DNA from: a virus
Length of the DNA: 34,165 nucleotides
Reading direction: 5' to 3' (one strand)
Virus record (IMG/VR): IMGVR_UViG_3300027985_000326
Location: 1 to 34,165 of that record
Below the pieces are notes generated by a model that saw only the letters and a program-made list of their open reading frames with translations, ran no database searches and was not told the origin of the DNA. Positions 11,472-34,165 of this stretch are shown here, in pieces (positions within the stretch are counted from its first letter, which is position 1; each line of letters opens with the position of its first letter). Made by a program: the position numbers and the translations under genes.

Positions 11472-11893
11472 GCGCGCAGGGCTTTTTCCACAACCTGAAT
11501 GCAGAATGCAATCAACTCTGCATCTGGCTGATGCTTCTTCATGCAGGCCTCGGTGGATTTCTTGGTGATCATGTCGCCGCCGGCCATGTCATGTTCCACA
11601 CGTCGCGCGGCAACTTGTTGCTTCGCAGCGCATTGCCGGATCATAGCCCAGTCGAACCGCCACTTGCGCTCGCAGCTTTCTATGGCGCGTCGAGAAAAAT
11701 CGCTTTGCGCGGTATCTAGAATGATCTGCGCGCGCGTGAAATCAGCCCGATTCCGGTCGATGCACTGCCATACATCAAAGTTTTCCGGTCCGACTAACGG
11801 CTCGCAATAGGCACGCTGATCCGCCTCGGAAAAAATGAAGGCTGATGCAGGCGAGGCTAGTGTCGCGCAAGCAACTGCAAGGCGAATAATCAT
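11462..11893 (-). CDS. Antisense moron: secreted 143-aa protein with three Cx13C units
   Basis: ATG 11893 with GAGGA 7 nt upstream. Signal peptide 'MIIRLAVACATLASPASA'. Six mature Cys arranged as 3 x C-X13-C. Local GC about 55%, below the genome average. It is the C-terminal third of track ORF 11462..12739. Confidence 0.7.
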   Translation of the reverse strand: MIIRLAVACATLASPASAFIFSEADQRAYCEPLVGPENFDVWQCIDRNRADFTRAQIILDTAQSDFSRRAIESCERKWRFDWAMIRQCAAKQQVAARRVEHDMAGGDMITKKSTEACMKKHQPDAELIAFCIQVVEKALRAQP

Positions 11894-25371: not shown

Positions 25372-25541
25372 TTCCAGACCTCTCCGTCAGGGCCAAAGCA
25401 GACCACCGAGACGTGCCCCTGCAGCGGGCGCAGCTCATCGACGATCTGCTTGCACTGTGCCTCACCAGAGGTCTGCATGACCTTGACATCGCTAATGCTG
25501 AAGCTGCCTGCGATCGCCAGAATTACGATCCAACCACTCAT
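25368..25541 (-). CDS. Small membrane-anchored protein (57 aa)
   Basis: ATG 25541 after GGGGAACAGGG. N-terminal 'MSGWIVILAIAGSFSI'. ATGA overlaps on both sides. Confidence 0.55.
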   Translation of the reverse strand: MSGWIVILAIAGSFSISDVKVMQTSGEAQCKQIVDELRPLQGHVSVVCFGPDGEVWK

Positions 25542-25720: not shown

Positions 25721-26114
25721 GGCGCACCGCATGTTCCAGTGCGGTGAGGGCGCGTAGAGCTGGCTGACGAACTTTCCGCTCAAACACGTCTGGGCGCTTG
25801 GCTGCGGTAGGTAGACGGTCGAACTCATCGAACGACCTTACTGCCTCCACCAGCGCCATCACCTCCGGGCAGCGCATGGCCTCGGCCGGGGTTGGCAGCA
25901 GATCGGCGCGGCTGTTCCATCTGTTTATCGCGCGAGCGCGCTCAACATTAGCGCGCTCAACATTGTCACTGAGCGAAAACCCAATACACGGAGCAATCGG
26001 GCAGGTTCTATCTTCATCAACACAGCCACACACTCCGACATTGCCAAGCCTCTGGACCCACGTTTTCGCTTTCCCGCCACAGAATGGGCACGGCTTGAGT
26101 TCATGCTCGCTCAT
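25713..26114 (-). CDS. Lar-family restriction-alleviation-like protein with a C-terminal extension (133 aa)
   Basis: 'LKPCPFCGGKAK...C..C...' followed by 'ARAINRWNSRA' matches the Lar zinc-ribbon pattern. RBS AGGAGG. ATGA overlap with the upstream MTase. Confidence 0.65.
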   Translation of the reverse strand: MSEHELKPCPFCGGKAKTWVQRLGNVGVCGCVDEDRTCPIAPCIGFSLSDNVERANVERARAINRWNSRADLLPTPAEAMRCPEVMALVEAVRSFDEFDRLPTAAKRPDVFERKVRQPALRALTALEHAVRHE

Positions 26115-26800
26115 GCGGTCCTCCTGATCTCTTCGAGGGCGTGATCGCCCCATTGCTCGGCCGCCGCCCGCATCATCCCCGAGAAAGACCGGCTGCGCAG
26201 GCGGGCGCGGTCGGGGCCGGGAGGCATCCGGTGCACGCGGTTCCAGGACTTCCATTCGTCACTGCCGCGAACGGGCTCCTCGAGCCTGTCGGTCGGCCGA
26301 AGCGGCGGCAGCCCGCGCAGATACCAGCCGGTTCCCTTGTATTCCGGGTGACCGAACCAATGCGGCTGCACGACCTGCGGCGCCGGCAGGTCGGCGGGCA
26401 TGCGTGCTTTGGCGAGGTCGTGCATCTCCGGGTTCTCGATCGCCACGCGCGCGATCGGAGCGCGCCAGCAGGCGGTAAACAGGTCGACGCCATCCTCGAA
26501 CTCGGCGATCATGCTGGCCCAGCTGCGCCCCTTCGGCAGGGTCTTGGGCGGGGTCATCGCCCCGGGCCCGGACAGCCAGCGGCGGCCAGCGCGGCACAGG
26601 CGCGTGCAGGGCGGATGTGCGACCAGCAGCAGGTCCCAGCCATCGCCCAGAACGTCGCGGATGTCGCAAACCATATGCCGGTTGCTGCCGTCCTCGGCGG
26701 GCAGGATATCGCAGGACCAGACGTCATGGCCGCGGGCGGAAAATGCCCGCCGGCCGATGCCGCTGGTCTCGCAGCCGATCAGGACGCGCATGGCGGTCAT
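26111..26800 (-). CDS. Orphan DNA cytosine-C5 methyltransferase-like protein (229 aa)
   Basis: 'MRVLIGCETSG' (motif I-like), 'LLVAHPPCTRL' (PC catalytic motif IV), 'VAIENPEM' (ENV-like motif VI). No cognate endonuclease is present. Confidence 0.55.
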   Translation of the reverse strand: MTAMRVLIGCETSGIGRRAFSARGHDVWSCDILPAEDGSNRHMVCDIRDVLGDGWDLLLVAHPPCTRLCRAGRRWLSGPGAMTPPKTLPKGRSWASMIAEFEDGVDLFTACWRAPIARVAIENPEMHDLAKARMPADLPAPQVVQPHWFGHPEYKGTGWYLRGLPPLRPTDRLEEPVRGSDEWKSWNRVHRMPPGPDRARLRSRSFSGMMRAAAEQWGDHALEEIRRTA

Positions 26801-27095: not shown

Positions 27096-27334
27096 GCGGC
27101 ACCGCCGGTCTCGCGAGCTGTGATCATGGCGTCTGCGATTTCGTATGCCCACGCCGCATGGTCTTGCGGTGAAAGCGACCATCCATCTGGCGCCGGGCAA
27201 CAAGCCCCGCTGATTGCCTGCCCGGCGAACCAGTCTCGCAGTGTCATGCCGGCATAACCTGGCACGAAATCAGGCCCAATTGACTGCAACGGAAACGCGG
27301 GGCCGCCGTCCTTGATCTCATCACTCATCGTCAT
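27092..27334 (-). CDS. Hypothetical phage protein (80 aa)
   Basis: 'GGPAFP...GMTLRDWFAGQA' is a motif seen in small conserved phage proteins. RBS GAGGA. Confidence 0.6.
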   Translation of the reverse strand: MTMSDEIKDGGPAFPLQSIGPDFVPGYAGMTLRDWFAGQAISGACCPAPDGWSLSPQDHAAWAYEIADAMITARETGGAA

Positions 27335-27343
27335 GTCCTCGTT

Positions 27344-27401
27344 GATCTCTCGGGATGCCGCCCGGCTCGCGGGCGGTCACCGGAGAGGTCAGATCAGGCG
27401 G
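27344..27401 (-). promoter_or_regulatory. Conserved stop-codon/hairpin RNA element, copy A (after recT)
   Basis: On the transcribed strand: CCGCCTGATCTGACCTCTCCGGTGA-CCGCCCG-CGAGC-CGGGCGG-CATCCCGAGAGATC. Near-identical to 32404-32458, with two compensatory stem base-pair swaps. Confidence 0.7.
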
Positions 27402-28198
27402 CCATCCTCAGCCTGCTCGTCCTGATGATGGATCACGGACATCGCTTCCTCCTCCGCGCGGGCGAGGTCTTCGGCGCTCGGCCAGAGGTCATGCGCCTGC
27501 TCGATCTGCGCCGGCGCAGCATCGTGGATTTCGTCGACTACGGTGTCGTCGACATAGACGGATCGGCCGGGACGCGGTGCTGCGCGAGGGGTCACATCGC
27601 GCGCGGTGTCGGGGCCGTAGTCCTGCACCTCCTCGGCAATCGAGAGTCCGAGCAGCGCATCCGGGGCTCCGTCGCGGATCGCGAAGGCCCGCGCGCGCAT
27701 CTGCAACATGCGCTCAGGATACTGCGTCCACGGGCCGGGCTTCTTCGACAGGCCTGCGCGCTCGGCATCGGACCATGAAAACCGGCGCACGATCTTCTTG
27801 CCGTCCTTGCGGGTCAGCGTGGCAACAGCGGCGCGTGTTTTGCCCTCGCCTTCCATCTCGACATCGACGAAATGGCCAGCAGCCATGACCATCGCAGGGA
27901 GGGCATCCCCCCAGACCGAGGGACGGCCATTGATGACTGCGATGTATTGCAGCGCCTGCATCGGCGCGAGGCCGACGTTCGCCCCCTGAAGGATCGCAGC
28001 CATGACGGCTTCGGGCTTGCCCTGAAAGTGCTTCGGGATCATGTCGCCCGCCTGCGAGAGCGCCTTCGCGAGGCGAAAGGCGTCCTCAATGGTGTGCGGC
28101 GTCATGGCTTCGATCAGGCCGGACTTGATGCCGCCAGCGATCGGCTTGAGCTTCGGAGGCTTCGGCGCAGCCTGAGCGGACAGTGCGGTTTCGGTCAT
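27389..28198 (-). CDS. recT: Single-strand annealing recombinase (RecT/Redbeta-type)
   Basis: 269 aa from ATG 28198 (RBS AGGAGGG). 'GANVGLAPMQALQYIAVINGRPSVWGDAL', 'YPERMLQMRARAFAIRD'. Paired with an exonuclease gene. Confidence 0.65.
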   Translation of the reverse strand: MTETALSAQAAPKPPKLKPIAGGIKSGLIEAMTPHTIEDAFRLAKALSQAGDMIPKHFQGKPEAVMAAILQGANVGLAPMQALQYIAVINGRPSVWGDALPAMVMAAGHFVDVEMEGEGKTRAAVATLTRKDGKKIVRRFSWSDAERAGLSKKPGPWTQYPERMLQMRARAFAIRDGAPDALLGLSIAEEVQDYGPDTARDVTPRAAPRPGRSVYVDDTVVDEIHDAAPAQIEQAHDLWPSAEDLARAEEEAMSVIHHQDEQAEDGRLI

Positions 28199-28212
28199 GG
28201 ATATTCCCTCCT

Positions 28213-29223
28213 TCACGGGGCTTGGAATTGCATCGAGGCGGCGCGGGCGGCCTCGCTCGGTTTGGGTTTCGGCGCGATTTCCGGGAAGCCGTGCGCGGCT
28301 GCGCTGTTGCGGCGGTGCCAGATCGGAGCGGCGATCTGCGCCACGCGGCGCGGGTATCCCGGCCACTCGCCACTATCGAGACAGGCCCGCCACTGGCGGC
28401 GCGCACGCCTGAGTTTCTGCTCGGCATCTGCGAACCAGTCTCCGGTCAGCGTCTCATCCGGCTCGTAATCGCTGGCCGGGCGCATCGTGCCATCTGACCA
28501 GAGTTCAACCACGCCGACCTCGAATGGCGGAGCCTTCTCGACGAACACGAACCGCATGGTGCGCTCCTCGCCGGTCAGCTCCTTCAGGATGCGCAGGTAA
28601 TGTGCCGCGCTGATGTCGTAGCCGCGATCTGCGACTGTCTTCGCCAGCGCATCCGGGTGAACGCTACCAGCCGTGGTCTTGAGGTCGAGCGCATATGTCT
28701 TTCCTGGCGGCAGGTTGTCGAACATGCAGCGGTTCCAGACGCCATCGAACTTCGCCAGCATCGCCACCTCGGAATGGTCCGGGTCGATGGGCATGTTCAT
28801 CTCGCGGAGCGCCGCTCCGACCTTGCGAGCGATGTGGTTAATGGCCTCGACCTCCGCCTCCTTGAGCGGCGTGACGCCCCGGTTTCGGCAGTCGGCGACG
28901 AATTCCTTCGCCTCCTTCGTGCGGATGCCGCCGTCGGCAGACAGCATTCCGTCGGGGATCGCCTCGAAGTCCTCACCCACTCCCAGCACCAGTCGGTGCG
29001 CGGCGGTGCCGATGTCGAAGGCCTTCTTCACCTCCGGCTCCCAATCCGGGTTCAGGCGAGGCGAGGCCGTCCAGGCATGAAGCGGCGTCTCCGAGATCAG
29101 CACCTTGGCGACGCTCGACGACAGGCTCGGCTCGGGCGCCGGATCGCTGTGATAGACATCGGCTGGCAGGCGGTAGACACCAGCGCCGAGGTGGACATTT
29201 TCAGGATGCAGGATTCCGTCCAT
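28213..29223 (-). CDS. PD-(D/E)XK exonuclease (RecE/DUF3799-like)
   Basis: 336 aa. 'GVYRLPADVYHSDPAPEPSLSSSVAKVL' opening, 'YALDLKTT' (D/E-x-K) core. Immediately upstream of recT. Confidence 0.7.
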   Translation of the reverse strand: MDGILHPENVHLGAGVYRLPADVYHSDPAPEPSLSSSVAKVLISETPLHAWTASPRLNPDWEPEVKKAFDIGTAAHRLVLGVGEDFEAIPDGMLSADGGIRTKEAKEFVADCRNRGVTPLKEAEVEAINHIARKVGAALREMNMPIDPDHSEVAMLAKFDGVWNRCMFDNLPPGKTYALDLKTTAGSVHPDALAKTVADRGYDISAAHYLRILKELTGEERTMRFVFVEKAPPFEVGVVELWSDGTMRPASDYEPDETLTGDWFADAEQKLRRARRQWRACLDSGEWPGYPRRVAQIAAPIWHRRNSAAAHGFPEIAPKPKPSEAARAASMQFQAP

Positions 29224-30119: not shown

Positions 30120-30148
30120 ACAGTAGCGTTCAGCGCTACTTTGCGCAA
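30120..30148 (-). promoter_or_regulatory. Candidate early-left promoter (TTGCGC-N17-TACTGT)
   Basis: Minus-strand -35 at 30148-30143 and -10 at 30125-30120. Operator O1 fills the spacer and the -10. Confidence 0.45.
30122..30140. promoter_or_regulatory. Operator O1: AGTAGCG-TTCAG-CGCTACT
   Basis: Perfect 7-bp inverted repeat with a 5-bp spacer. Confidence 0.7.
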
Positions 30149-30155
30149 CATAAAA

Positions 30156-30174
30156 AATAGCGATTAGCGCTACT
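30156..30174. promoter_or_regulatory. Operator O2: AATAGCG-ATTAG-CGCTACT
   Basis: Same 19-bp dyad with one mismatch. Centre is 34 bp from the O1 centre. Confidence 0.65.
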
Positions 30175-30952: not shown

Positions 30953-30981
30953 ATTGTAGCGGTGACCGCTAATCGCGTCAG
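30953..30981 (-). promoter_or_regulatory. Candidate repressor maintenance promoter (CTGACG-N17-TACAAT)
   Basis: The -10 TACAAT ends 6 nt before ATG 30946, implying a leaderless mRNA. O3 overlaps the spacer and -10. Confidence 0.35.
30955..30973. promoter_or_regulatory. Operator O3: TGTAGCG-GTGAC-CGCTAAT
   Basis: Core TAGCG-N5-CGCTA dyad shared with O1, O2 and O4. Confidence 0.6.
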
Positions 30982-31004: not shown

Positions 31005-31033
31005 TTGCCAAAAGTAGCGTTGAGCGCTACCTT
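31005..31033 (+). promoter_or_regulatory. Candidate early-right promoter (TTGCCA-N17-TACCTT)
   Basis: Same layout as the left promoter. Spacer AAAGTAGCGTTGAGCGC compares with AAAGTAGCGCTGAACGC. The -10 ends 6 nt before ATG 31040. Confidence 0.45.
31013..31031. promoter_or_regulatory. Operator O4: AGTAGCG-TTGAG-CGCTACC
   Basis: 19-bp dyad with 6 of 7 bp per arm symmetric. Sits in the PR spacer. Confidence 0.7.
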
Positions 31034-32011: not shown

Positions 32012-32169
32012 CCGACGCCGCCACCATCGCCAGCGACATCCGCATGATCCGCGCGTGTCGATCCATCGAGGAGCTGGACGCATACGAGGCCGAGGCGCGC
32101 CGCCGCGGTCTCGATCCGCACGAGGTCACCGCCATCGCTGAGCAGCGGCGGCGGATGGCGAAGAGATGA
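32008..32169 (+). CDS. Hypothetical protein (53 aa), below the ORF-track threshold
   Basis: ATG 32008 overlaps the TGA at 32009-11. 54 codons with high GC3. Its stop overlaps the ATG at 32166. Confidence 0.45.
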   Translation: MTDAATIASDIRMIRACRSIEELDAYEAEARRRGLDPHEVTAIAEQRRRMAKR

Positions 32170-32240
32170 CCGCGCCGCGGTCCAGATTTCCCAGCTGGGA
32201 AGCAACAGCGGAAAGAGCCGCGCAACACAAGGAGAAACCC

Positions 32241-32411
32241 ATGAACGACCTCACCGATGCCCAGAAGGCCACGCTCGAGCGCATCAAGGCTGCAACCGGC
32301 GCCATCGTCCTGCCCGTGTCCGCGGCACGCGCGCTCGTTGCCAAGGGCCTGATCAAGTCGGACGGCACCAAAGGCCACGGCAAGGCCAAGGCCGCCTACA
32401 TCGCCGCCTGA
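32241..32411 (+). CDS. Hypothetical protein (56 aa; 81 aa if started at 32166)
   Basis: ATG 32241 preceded by AAGGAGAAACCC. Its stop TGA is embedded in hairpin element copy B. Confidence 0.55.
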   Translation: MNDLTDAQKATLERIKAATGAIVLPVSAARALVAKGLIKSDGTKGHGKAKAAYIAA

Positions 32412-32478
32412 TCTGACCTCTCCGGTGACCGGCCCCGCGCGGGCCGGCATCCCGAAAGCCAGTGAGCGAGAGGAGATC
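32404..32478 (+). promoter_or_regulatory. Conserved stop-codon/hairpin RNA element, copy B, including the SD-pairing arm
   Basis: CCGCCTGATCTGACCTCTCCGGTGA-CCGGCCC-CGCGC-GGGCCGG-CATCCCGAAAG. The arm GATCT(GA)CCTCTC (32410-22) is complementary to GAGAGGAGATC (32468-78), the SD region of the gene at 32482. Confidence 0.7.
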
Positions 32479-32481
32479 GCC

Positions 32482-32994
32482 ATGAACAAAAGAGCCGACA
32501 TTCACCACGACATGGAAGGGGCGGAGCCCGAGCTGAAGCTCGACACGCTCAAGGGAGACATCCGGGATGCGATGCTGTCGCGGATCCGGCAGATGAAGAC
32601 CGGCTGGCCGCTGCTGGTAGAGGCTGAGCAGGCCGAAATCGTCAACGGCATCGAGATGGCTGCCGGGCACATCATCCGCTCCGTGGTGCGTGAGTTGACC
32701 GCTCATCAGTGGCCCTATGCCGTCGTCACGCTCGGCGAGGTCAAGATCAAGGGCGAGAAGGGGATCGAAGCCAAGATCGGGTGCTCGAACATCGAGCACA
32801 ACCGTTCGGTCCTGGGCGAGCATGTCGGCCAGATGGTGCAGATCGTCATGGTCGACAGCGACCAGTTCATGGGCCAGCGCGACGACCCGGAAATCCAGCC
32901 CGATCAGTCAGACATGTTCTCCGGCCAGAATGAGGACGATGGCCCCGATGATGACGGCCCCCGTATGCTTCCGCGCCCGGAGGATCTGGACTGA
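32482..32994 (+). CDS. Hypothetical protein with an acidic C-terminal tail (170 aa)
   Basis: ATG 32482 after GAGAGGAG. C-terminus 'NEDDGPDDDGPRMLPRPEDLD'. Function unknown. Confidence 0.6.
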   Translation: MNKRADIHHDMEGAEPELKLDTLKGDIRDAMLSRIRQMKTGWPLLVEAEQAEIVNGIEMAAGHIIRSVVRELTAHQWPYAVVTLGEVKIKGEKGIEAKIGCSNIEHNRSVLGEHVGQMVQIVMVDSDQFMGQRDDPEIQPDQSDMFSGQNEDDGPDDDGPRMLPRPEDLD

Positions 32995-33508: not shown

Positions 33509-34165
33509 ACACCGTGACCGCCATTCGTGCTGATGCGCTCCCGATGAATATCGAGGCGGAGCAGCAGCTGATCGGGATGGCACTCCTGGAGCCGTCGATC
33601 CTGTCGCGCATCGCCATGCGTGGAGGGGCCGCCCTGTTCGCTGAGCCGACGCATGCTCGCGCATTCGAGGCTATGGTCGCCAAGGAGCGCGTCGGGCACC
33701 AGGTAGATATTGTGACGGTCGGGGAGGCCATGAGGGGGGAGGAGTGCCTCTCCGCTCTCGGCGGGCCGTCATATCTGGCGCGCTGTGCAGGGGCCTGCAT
33801 GAGCCCTGTCGCGGCACCTGGCTACATCGACATTTTGGCAGATCTCGCCGCCAAGCGCAGCCTGATCTCGGCCATGTCGGAGGCGCAAGCATCCATTGCC
33901 CGCGGTGACATGCAGGCCGCGCAGATCGCGGCGCGGCTGGAGGCGTCTCTGATCGCGGCATCCGACGTCGACGCAAAGCGCGGTCCCGTGTCGATGCAGG
34001 CCGCCGTTTTGAAGGCGCTCAAGGGCATCGTCGCCGCCTACAACGGCGAGAAGACCGAGGCCGTGCTGACTGGAATCGGCGCACTTGACAGGATCTGCGG
34101 TGGTTTTAACCCGGGCGATCTGATCATTCTCGGCGGCAGGCCGTCGATGGGAAAGACTGCGCTCG
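33505..34165 (+). CDS. dnaB: Replicative DNA helicase DnaB-like, N-terminal part (runs off the window end and continues at 1..875 on the circle)
   Basis: ATG at 33505 overlaps the upstream TGA (33506-08). The frame stays open to the window end. N-terminal 'NIEAEQQLIGMALLEPS' is DnaB N-domain-like. The frame is continuous with 3..875 through the repeat; the joined ORF is 1,392 nt (463 aa). Confidence 0.85.
   Translation, partial: MNTVTAIRADALPMNIEAEQQLIGMALLEPSILSRIAMRGGAALFAEPTHARAFEAMVAKERVGHQVDIVTVGEAMRGEECLSALGGPSYLARCAGACMSPVAAPGYIDILADLAAKRSLISAMSEAQASIARGDMQAAQIAARLEASLIAASDVDAKRGPVSMQAAVLKALKGIVAAYNGEKTEAVLTGIGALDRICGGFNPGDLIILGGRPSMGKTAL
34022..34165. repeat. Terminal direct repeat copy 2 (identical to 1-144)
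   Basis: Same as copy 1. Position 34022 corresponds to position 1. Confidence 0.97.

Follow-up and report, generated by a model that had tools for sequence, protein, structure and literature searches.

Why the two divergent early operons of one phage should carry the same hairpin-forming sequence, each time behind an unrelated gene, is the question raised by a viral DNA of 34,165 nucleotides (nt) (IMG/VR virus record IMGVR_UViG_3300027985_000326, positions 1 to 34,165; this whole stretch is called the window below). One copy of the element (copy A, minus strand) follows recT in the leftward operon, and the other (copy B, plus strand) follows the gene of a 56-amino-acid (aa) protein in the rightward operon. 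A first-pass annotation, made from the letters of the window, had described the pair as a structured non-coding unit lying in sense orientation in both operons, and this is what we find. Its counts are also right on direct reading, as the 5' flanks agree at 25 of 25 positions, the 3' flanks at 10 of 11, and two stem pairs are changed on both sides between the copies. The explanation that we favor, tentatively, is that both copies are instances of a widespread intercistronic hairpin motif of temperate phages and prophages of Alphaproteobacteria (Rhodobacterales and Rhizobiales), which would act at the RNA level as a cistron boundary and serve in addition as a recombination joint.

Two Copies of One Hairpin in the Window

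On the minus strand, from 27401 to 27347, copy A reads CCGCCTGATCTGACCTCTCCGGTGA-CCGCCCG-CGAGC-CGGGCGG-CATCCCGAGAG. Copy B, on the plus strand from 32404 to 32458, has the 5' flank of copy A and then CCGGCCC-CGCGC-GGGCCGG-CATCCCGAAAG. The longer readings are ...GGCCGCCTGATCTGACCTCTCCGGTGA-CCGCCCG-CGAGC-CGGGCGG-CATCCCGAGAGATCAACGAGGACATG after recT (minus strand) and ...ATCGCCGCCTGATCTGACCTCTCCGGTGA-CCGGCCC-CGCGC-GGGCCGG-CATCCCGAAAGCC... after the 56-aa gene (plus strand). The two copies form the longest inverted repeat of the window (59 nt, 88%), and the 23-mer flank that they have in common occurs exactly twice in the window compared with 0 times in 100 shuffles. Each copy occupies an entire gap between two genes, that between recT and an 80-aa gene for copy A and that between the 56-aa gene and a 170-aa gene for copy B, with the next start codon 8 nt (copy A) and 14 nt (copy B) after the modeled element (Table 1).

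The 7-bp stem recognized in the first pass is real, but it is only the upper part of a longer hairpin, which continues through a 3x3 internal loop, UGA/CAU, into a lower stem CTCTCCGG/CCCGAGAG (CCCGAAAG in copy B). The stop codon that the copies were said to share proves to be two: within cc-TGA-tc-TGA-cc the recT frame stops at the second TGA and that of the 56-aa gene at the first. What was taken for a boxA-like linear part of 25 nt consists for the most part of the lower stem's 5' arm together with the stop codons of the upstream genes.

A Family of Homologous Elements

Searches with the flanks of the window copies yielded no homologue. Neither an exact 21-mer of the flank nor a 20-mer with two free positions matched any viral contig. 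The 3 matches to a two-block flank pattern, the 47 matches to an 18-mer window-specific flank in species-representative genomes and the 43 matches to the 20-mer pattern in metagenome contigs were all due to chance, and the element sequence is absent beside the RecT relatives in IMG/VR (at most 64% identical). Judged by these searches, the window-specific flanks appear to be confined to a narrow lineage.

Close relatives came by way of their proteins, from short public assemblies, and these showed which positions are conserved. In L114 and L115 (recT 92% identical) the stem after recT is CCGGGCC/GGCCCGG with the loop CACGC; in L116 (89%) it is the stem of copy A, which L162 (85%) also has, with the loop CCGC and a diverged 5' flank. 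The copy that follows the 56-aa gene in L171, i.e. in the position of copy B, is identical to window copy A at 61 of 61 positions. L114, L116, L162 and L171 are close relatives of the window phage that carry copies; in L165 (a prophage of Pseudodonghicola flavimaris) and L166 the homologous element follows an AAA_24 ATPase gene of the leftward operon. Conserved among all these copies is YCGGTGACCG, then a hairpin, then CGGCATCCCRAG.

A scan of viral contigs with the core pattern CGGTGACCG-N(11-16)-CGGCATCC returned at least 120 stretches, and a GC hairpin fills the gap in 47 of the 121 matches listed, the remainder of which look like chance. Alignment A1 holds 46 distinct copies, three pattern matches having been dropped by eye for want of a lower stem, which introduces a slight bias toward that stem. 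The covariance model R1, used for the family searches, detects 73 non-redundant copies in the loci examined, some with a core that differs from the scan pattern. The covariance-model search of relatives proposed in the first pass has in this way recovered homologous copies, whose stems covary. Within the window R1 finds exactly two sites, of 70.3 and 59.5 bits, the next match scoring 13.6 bits; the reverse strand reaches only 11.8 bits. Among named phages, R1 gives 66 bits to the copy that separates gp42 from gp41 in Rhodobacter phage RcapNL, 51 bits to the one behind the first gene adjoining the repressor in Rhizobium phage RR1-A, and 32 bits to a diverged copy in Paracoccus phage Pben1.

All 73 known copies lie in the early regions of phages or prophages, always in the sense orientation, and the annotated genes of RcapNL, RR1-A and Pben1 agree with this placement. 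BLAST matches in Ralstonia megaplasmids score 13.6 bits under R1 and were rejected as chance GC hairpins, and BLAST of a plasmid collection gave no convincing copy beyond one in a probable Paracoccus prophage. That the element is not a described motif, as the first pass had it, holds for Rfam 15 and for the literature searched. Rfam 15 has no match at either copy (whole window, E <= 1; 141-nt scan, E <= 10) and only a chance microRNA match in the two-copy region of L194; a literature search with the core sequence returned only primers and unrelated papers, and the papers on RcapNL and on the Paracoccus virome mention neither hairpins nor intergenic repeats.

In one isolate genome, IMG taxon 2547132467, four different prophage contigs (L200, L258, L278 and L288) have one or two motif copies each, which suggests that prophages resident in the same host have exchanged the element.

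Covariation and the Invariant Internal Loop

The hairpin, about 45–60 nt in all, is built of a sequence-variable lower stem of 8–13 bp, an invariant internal-loop region, Y-GG-UG-N ... CAU-CC-R (GGUG(A)/CAUCC), and a GC-rich upper stem of 7–8 bp, variable in sequence and in its loop. Seventeen columns of A1 are invariant, CGGUGACCG and CGGCAUCC. On the proposed structure 82.8% of the cells in A1 are paired, compared with 65.9% in shuffles; 14 of the 20 pairs change on both sides; and the covariation score is 0.416 versus 0.139 in shuffles, none of the 500 shuffles reaching 0.416, with slid controls at 0.09 or below. A paired upper stem was required when scan matches were chosen, so that the upper-stem statistics are biased, but the lower stem was not used in choosing the sequences and covaries strongly. 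Its pair 16-52 is CG in 21 copies, UA in 16 and GC in 4, pair 15-53 is UA in 30 and AU in 14, and pair 10-58 is GC in 20, AU in 15 and UA in 4.

The diverged copies that the pattern scan missed retain GGUG...CAUCC and have compensatory changes even at pairs that are fixed in A1, such as CCA...UGG or, where the mismatch stands, U-A. The hairpin is also predicted independently by RNAalifold, together with an alternative local fold in which a U-A and a G-C pair form and one A and one U are bulged out. Apical loops are of 24 different sequences, 3–7 nt long, among the 47 hairpin-bearing matches listed, none of them GNRA-like. The element is a hairpin under selection, invariant in its internal loop, and the covariation across the family bears out the argument, advanced from two base pairs of the window copies, that the compensatory changes are genuine and reflect selection on structure.

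Stop Codon, Hairpin and Start Codon

In 73 of 73 non-redundant copies a long open reading frame (ORF) of the same strand ends in the 5' arm of the element. The stop codon is UGA in 63 of 72 copies, UGAC in 42 of 72, and sits 9–12 nt before GGUG in 54 of 72. A Shine-Dalgarno (SD) sequence and a start codon lie downstream in 68 of the 73, in 63 of these within about 30 nt of the end of the element. With the stop codon in the 5' arm and the SD sequence and start codon close behind, the element therefore constitutes the whole intercistronic region, made up of stop, hairpin, ribosome-binding site and start.

These counts also speak for a translational device. The stable hairpin, behind a weak UGA-C stop and shortly ahead of the next ribosome-binding site, would then modulate how translation of the upstream gene terminates, and initiation at the downstream gene would be coupled or limited by it. 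Given the size of the ribosome footprint, a terminating ribosome would melt the lower stem exactly as far as the invariant loop. However, the ribosome-binding site usually lies outside the hairpin, so that a simple occlusion switch does not result, and the invariance of an internal loop amid varying stems is left unexplained. Programmed read-through or gene fusion was considered and rejected, as the extensions beyond the stop codon are of random length (1–227 codons) and yield no conserved read-through product. We regard a primarily translational function as unlikely.

A GC-rich hairpin directly after a gene in both operons would also suit an intrinsic terminator that closes immediate-early transcription units, yet this is highly improbable. 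As the first pass had recognized, the U tract is missing: it follows no copy of the family, in which CAUCC stands behind the upper stem and SD-containing sequence behind the lower one. Neither window site was reported by a terminator scan, the next gene begins 8–14 nt after the window elements, which leaves no room for a new promoter, and arrays of up to about seven copies in one operon would block its expression. A promoter inside or after the element was likewise rejected, there being no room before the next start and no sigma-70-like or sigma-54-like match by eye.

The number of copies per early region ranges from 1 to about 7: RcapNL, RR1-A and L165 have a single copy each, the window has two, and L272 has up to five to seven in a stretch of 3 kb. 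Copies arranged in an array are all on one strand within a contig; those of the window follow two divergent operons. The upstream genes are typical early genes that are mutually unrelated, namely RecT of two PHROG families, AAA_24, DUF2303 and others.

Mosaic Joints at the Element

The alternative offered in the first pass, that of a conserved sequence at module boundaries, is borne out. Nucleotide homology between the window and its relatives spans the upstream gene and the element and ends 0–25 nt past the element, where a different gene begins. In L114 an extra 106-aa gene is inserted exactly at this joint; L116 and L162 have other small genes after the element, and L171 has, in its rightward operon, a GapR-like gene that also follows an element in L117, but there in the leftward operon. 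In the array contigs whole genes between copies are replaced, and the cassettes of L272 differ from those of L203, L281 and L286. Homology breakpoints are enriched at the element in other phages too: over 20 contig pairs, internal ends being counted, 22 of 103 fall within 30 nt of an element against 5.0 expected by coverage, in a rough test whose null is a random position and not other gene boundaries and whose contig pairs are not independent. The element is frequently at module joints.

Such joints could alternatively be the work of a DNA-level recombination or mobility signal, a hairpin cassette boundary of the attC or REP (repetitive extragenic palindromic) kind that is recognized by a recombinase or transposase and moves adjacent genes. 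The rows of small ORFs with one co-oriented copy behind every ORF, the stop codons at a fixed position and often in two frames, and the replacement of whole cassettes at clustered breakpoints would all suit this explanation. So would the base mismatches of the lower stem, in which A.C cells outnumber G.U cells and do not favor sense RNA over DNA. Integron attC sites resemble the motif in these same-orientation arrays of small ORFs, each with an imperfect palindrome, an unpaired central spacer and often a stop inside. In the motif, however, conservation is seen halfway up the hairpin and not at its base, and the joints come after the element. No R''/R' cores (RYYYAAC/GTTRRRY) were visible on reading the copies, although no dedicated pattern search for them was run, and the annotated genes include no integron integrase. 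REP elements and BIMEs (bacterial interspersed mosaic elements) are likewise imperfect, GC-rich palindromes that contain a small mismatch or loop and show compensatory stem changes, and many of their copies stand directly behind stop codons within operons; but they number hundreds of chromosomal copies in both orientations and are linked to RAYT transposases, whereas the motif has so far been seen only in phage and prophage early regions, always in the sense orientation, the scan of species-representative genomes having covered the window-specific 18-mer.

Several further observations oppose a dedicated DNA signal. No IntI- or RAYT-like gene is among the genes annotated, the loci having only ordinary phage tyrosine integrases, and no protein is common across the motif loci. 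Both arms of the lower stem travel with the upstream gene, and the breakpoints lie after the element, without a fixed point of crossover inside it. Of the 103 breakpoints, the majority (81) are away from elements. A DNA site would not need the strict co-orientation with transcription in both operons, and homologous recombination of the RecT/Exo type on a conserved patch accounts for the joints without a dedicated recombinase. A signal of this kind is, in our judgment, improbable.

Joints of comparable appearance are described for PeSL (promoter-early stem-loop) cassettes of T4-type phages, which are composite units of terminator and early promoter at the boundaries of small accessory early genes (PMC2839356, PMC4122927). 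Like the motif, PeSL are short conserved intergenic stem-loops that are repeated and coincide with joints of insertion, deletion or replacement (PMC2839356, PMC4122927). Unlike PeSL, the motif has neither a U tract nor space for a promoter, and its conserved part is the internal loop of a long covarying hairpin.

In L117 (10810-10940) and L118, whose RecT is 85% identical, a transfer RNA (tRNA)-like sequence with the anticodon-loop sequence CUCAUAA and the T arm GGTTCGAATCC replaces the hairpin element after recT; L117 has the element further down the same operon (11696-11757). Other, unrelated GC-rich hairpins follow the 56-aa gene in the more distant relatives L165 (10172-10233), L166 (10172-10256) and L170 (250-331), with the double stop TGATCTGA retained in L166 and L170. 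A hairpin at the boundary of the 56-aa gene seems to be conserved even without the motif.

The Case for and against Processive Antitermination

The first-pass annotation had likened the two copies to lambda nutL and nutR. If the element were such a site, or one of the put kind, serving processive antitermination, its RNA hairpin would alter RNA polymerase, with or without the help of a phage or host protein, so that terminators downstream in both early operons are passed. The window indeed has, as do lambda and phage HK022 (putL/putR), one similar sense copy per divergent early operon with compensatory changes between them; the single copy of RR1-A follows the first gene adjoining the repressor; and an arginine-rich peptide, or the polymerase itself, could bind to a structured RNA whose internal loop is invariant.

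The analogy to nut nevertheless fails in detail. Apical loops vary freely and it is the internal loop that is conserved; by eye, in comparison with the boxA consensus, there is no conserved boxA-like linear block, the 5' part being stem and stop codons. The motif occurs in up to about seven copies, in arrays that flank single small genes, and the window copies are not promoter-proximal but 1.4–2.7 kb from the operator-marked promoter regions. No terminator-like sites were found downstream of the window copies by the terminator scan. An N-like protein, which the first pass could not identify either, is not encoded among the early genes of the window as judged by Pfam, PHROG and tblastn. HK022 put sites, which act on RNA polymerase without protein factors, consist of two adjacent stem-loops of about 65–70 nt, whereas the covariation-supported structure of the motif is a single hairpin. 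Antitermination is quite unlikely to be the function of the element, and slightly more doubtful than a translational or a DNA-level one.

One gene of a relative bears on this question. The gene directly after the element in L114 has the precomputed Pfam label 'Phage_N_antitermin' (PF26859), as have 52 of 52 homologues of its product, and genes with this label are found in N-like and Q-like positions in other prophages; the label was not reproduced with a local copy of Pfam. No homologue was found in the window by tblastn with the L114 protein (best E-value 0.038), about 1.7 Mb of other loci with the motif contain no PF26859-labeled gene, and four PF26859 loci have no strong motif match, the best being a different hairpin of 21.7 bits. 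The association with the element in L114 looks incidental, because the label is unreproduced, the other motif loci have no homologue and the PF26859 loci have no strong motif. The L114 protein has no relative in PDB.

The family labeled PF26859/phrog_25091 itself, of about 105 aa, occurs in prophages of the Roseobacter group (L114 2454-2774, L296 10001-10315, L297 10001-10318). In L296, a Salipiger prophage, its gene is the first by the repressor region, an N-like position, and in L297–L299 it precedes the terminase genes. These positions suggest an N-like or Q-like role.

A Proposed Role at the Boundaries of Early Cistrons

In the explanation that we favor, the motif would be transcribed in the sense orientation within the early polycistronic messenger RNA (mRNA) and fold into the hairpin of about 45–60 nt. 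A conserved factor would recognize the invariant internal loop, and we infer that this factor is supplied by the host because no protein common to all motif-bearing loci was found; a shared phage-encoded binding protein was rejected on the same ground. The hairpin would then act on the RNA as a cistron-boundary element, most likely, by analogy, as an RNase III-type processing site and/or a barrier to 3' decay that insulates the upstream cistron. At the level of DNA, a conserved stretch of about 30–60 nt at many gene boundaries would provide a homology patch for the exchange of modules between operons and phages, plausibly by the phage's own RecT/Exo. A patch of this kind would put one window copy at the outer edge of each divergent early module.

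The RNase III sites of phage T7 (R0.3, R0.5, R1.1 and others) are sense-strand hairpins at cistron boundaries, similar to one another and with a conserved internal loop. The motif is like them in being multi-copy, on the transcribed strand and at cistron boundaries, as a hairpin of about two helical turns with a conserved internal loop. It differs in having no sequence similarity to them, alphaproteobacterial hosts and a stop codon built into the stem, and it is a putative RNase III substrate; moreover, its internal loop is symmetric (3x3 or two single bulges) and invariant over many unrelated phages, unlike that of the T7 sites. A role in mRNA stability has a precedent in REP elements, which affect the stability of mRNA and, when near a stop codon, its translation, and another in the decay terminator of the puf operon of Rhodobacter capsulatus, an intercistronic hairpin that shields the upstream mRNA segment from 3' decay. 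The latter is also a stable hairpin within a polycistronic mRNA of a Rhodobacterales host, but it is a single chromosomal locus, whereas the motif is a repeated family with an invariant internal loop, and there is no homology between the two.

Several points weigh against this explanation. The action on RNA and the role in processing or stability are deduced from the anatomy of the element and from analogy. No requirement of RNase III for a conserved internal-loop sequence is known, and the invariant GGUG/CAUCC may for this reason indicate a different and more specific binder. The excess of A.C over G.U cells in the lower stem (68 versus 34 overall) does not single out the sense strand, and would fit pairing of the antisense strand or of DNA, or a constraint from the fixed UGA. 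Folding energies of the window copies, compared with shuffles in their GC-rich context, have z values of only -1.9 and -0.7, and it is covariation, not folding energy, that supports the element. The biased upper-stem statistics and the rough null of the breakpoint test, given above, count on the same side.

A bolder explanation, which we consider possible although on the unlikely side, is that the motif is a new class of cis-acting regulatory RNA. Here the invariant GGUG(N)/CAUCC loop would dock a specific host protein or RNA polymerase and control read-through, processing or translation at every early cistron boundary. The motif would then match nut/put or the T7 RNase III sites in function, have a recognition code of its own, and double as a recombination linker that drives the shuffling of modules in these phages.

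Phage operons with repeated intercistronic hairpins are known, as are mosaic joints marked by conserved sequences. New here is a family with its own invariant core and a built-in stop codon, absent from Rfam and undescribed in the literature searched. It offers a testable handle on the organization of early polycistronic transcripts in alphaproteobacterial phages, whose early gene regulation is far less studied than that of lambda or T7. It is also a physical candidate for the linker sequences long postulated at the mosaic joints of temperate phages, the joints being visible at the element. Function is directly testable in the RcapNL prophage of R. capsulatus SB1003, which is cultivable and has a single copy, and R1 could serve for annotating the motif in genomes.

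The Window Genome and Its Early Region

The ends of the window are identical over 144 nt (1-144 = 34022-34165), and the contig is therefore a circular or circularly assembled phage genome with a unit of 34,021 bp; its G+C content is about 63%. Gene assignments by Pfam and PHROG agree with the context given in the first pass (recT, repressor and divergent early operons), the early region encoding RecT, a DUF3799 exonuclease, an S24-type CI-like repressor, cro-like and cII-like proteins and RusA. The genes and the parts of the two elements are collected in Table 1. The upper hairpin of copy B is found identical in the unrelated contigs L175, L180, L262 and L283.

TABLE 1. Positions of the two element copies, of their parts and of the adjoining genes in the window
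Feature	Position	Strand	Remarks
recT	27389..28198	-	Upstream gene of copy A; Pfam RecT and phrog_561; ORF 27389..28366
56-aa gene	32241..32411	+	Upstream of copy B; ORF 32166..32411; homologues in Rhodobacterales prophages
80-aa gene, phrog_2201	ATG 27334-27332	-	Directly downstream of copy A
170-aa gene, phrog_6576	ATG 32482	+	Directly downstream of copy B
Copy A of intercistronic hairpin element	27337..27405	-	Inverted repeat I1; R1 match 27337-27398, 70.3 bits, E 1.9e-17
Two out-of-frame TGAs, copy A	27396-27394 and 27391-27389	-	Second is the recT stop; both in the extended 5' arm of the lower stem
Copy A lower stem, 5' arm CTCTCCGG	27380..27387	-	Partner 27347-27354; lower stem covaries in 46 sequences
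Copy A internal loop, 5' side UGA	27377..27379	-	UG invariant in family (alignment A1); GGUG kept by diverged copies
Copy A upper hairpin CCGCCCG-CGAGC-CGGGCGG	27358..27376	-	Two-sided changes in the family at pairs 26-42, 27-41, 28-40 and 31-39
Copy A internal loop, 3' side CAU	27355..27357	-	Invariant across family
Copy A lower stem, 3' arm CCCGAGAG	27347..27354	-	
SD GAGGA (27340-27336) and ATG (27334-27332) of 80-aa gene	27332..27340	-	
Copy B of element	32400..32468	+	Inverted repeat I1; R1 match 32407-32467, 59.5 bits, E 2e-14
Two out-of-frame TGAs, copy B	32409..32416	+	The 56-aa gene stops at the first (32409-32411)
Copy B lower stem, 5' arm CTCTCCGG	32418..32425	+	Partner 32451-32458; one C.A mismatch from a G-to-A change
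Copy B upper hairpin CCGGCCC-CGCGC-GGGCCGG	32429..32447	+	Read directly
Copy B lower stem, 3' arm CCCGAAAG	32451..32458	+	
SD GAGGAG and ATG (32482) of 170-aa gene	32470..32484	+	

Four perfect operator-like palindromes, TAGCG-N5-CGCTA, mark both divergent promoter/operator regions. Two of them (30124-30138 and 30158-30172) are between the 3' end of the repressor gene and the leftward operon, and two (30957-30971 and 31015-31029) separate the repressor from the cro-like gene; the four very probably represent the operators OL and OR. Of the promoter regions so marked, the left one is about 2.7 kb from copy A and the right one about 1.4 kb from copy B. The Pseudodonghicola prophage has similar GTAGC-N5-GCTAC repeats in the same two positions (L165 3971-4025 and 8285-8345).

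A 229-aa protein of the window (26111-26800, minus strand), assigned to phrog_757 and annotated as a DNA methyltransferase, without a Pfam match, is the window protein most often common to other motif-bearing loci (L200, L180, L266, L242 and L165). Rfam also matches the COG3860 RNA motif weakly at 25469-25509 of the plus strand (22.9 bits compared with a gathering score of 42.5, E 0.33), which is probably due to chance. In or adjoining the HTH_36 replication-protein gene of L165 (12427-12565) there are four 28-nt direct repeats, of the type CAAACCCCGCAG-N-GTGCACC and at a spacing of 33–45 nt, which look like the iterons of a replication origin.

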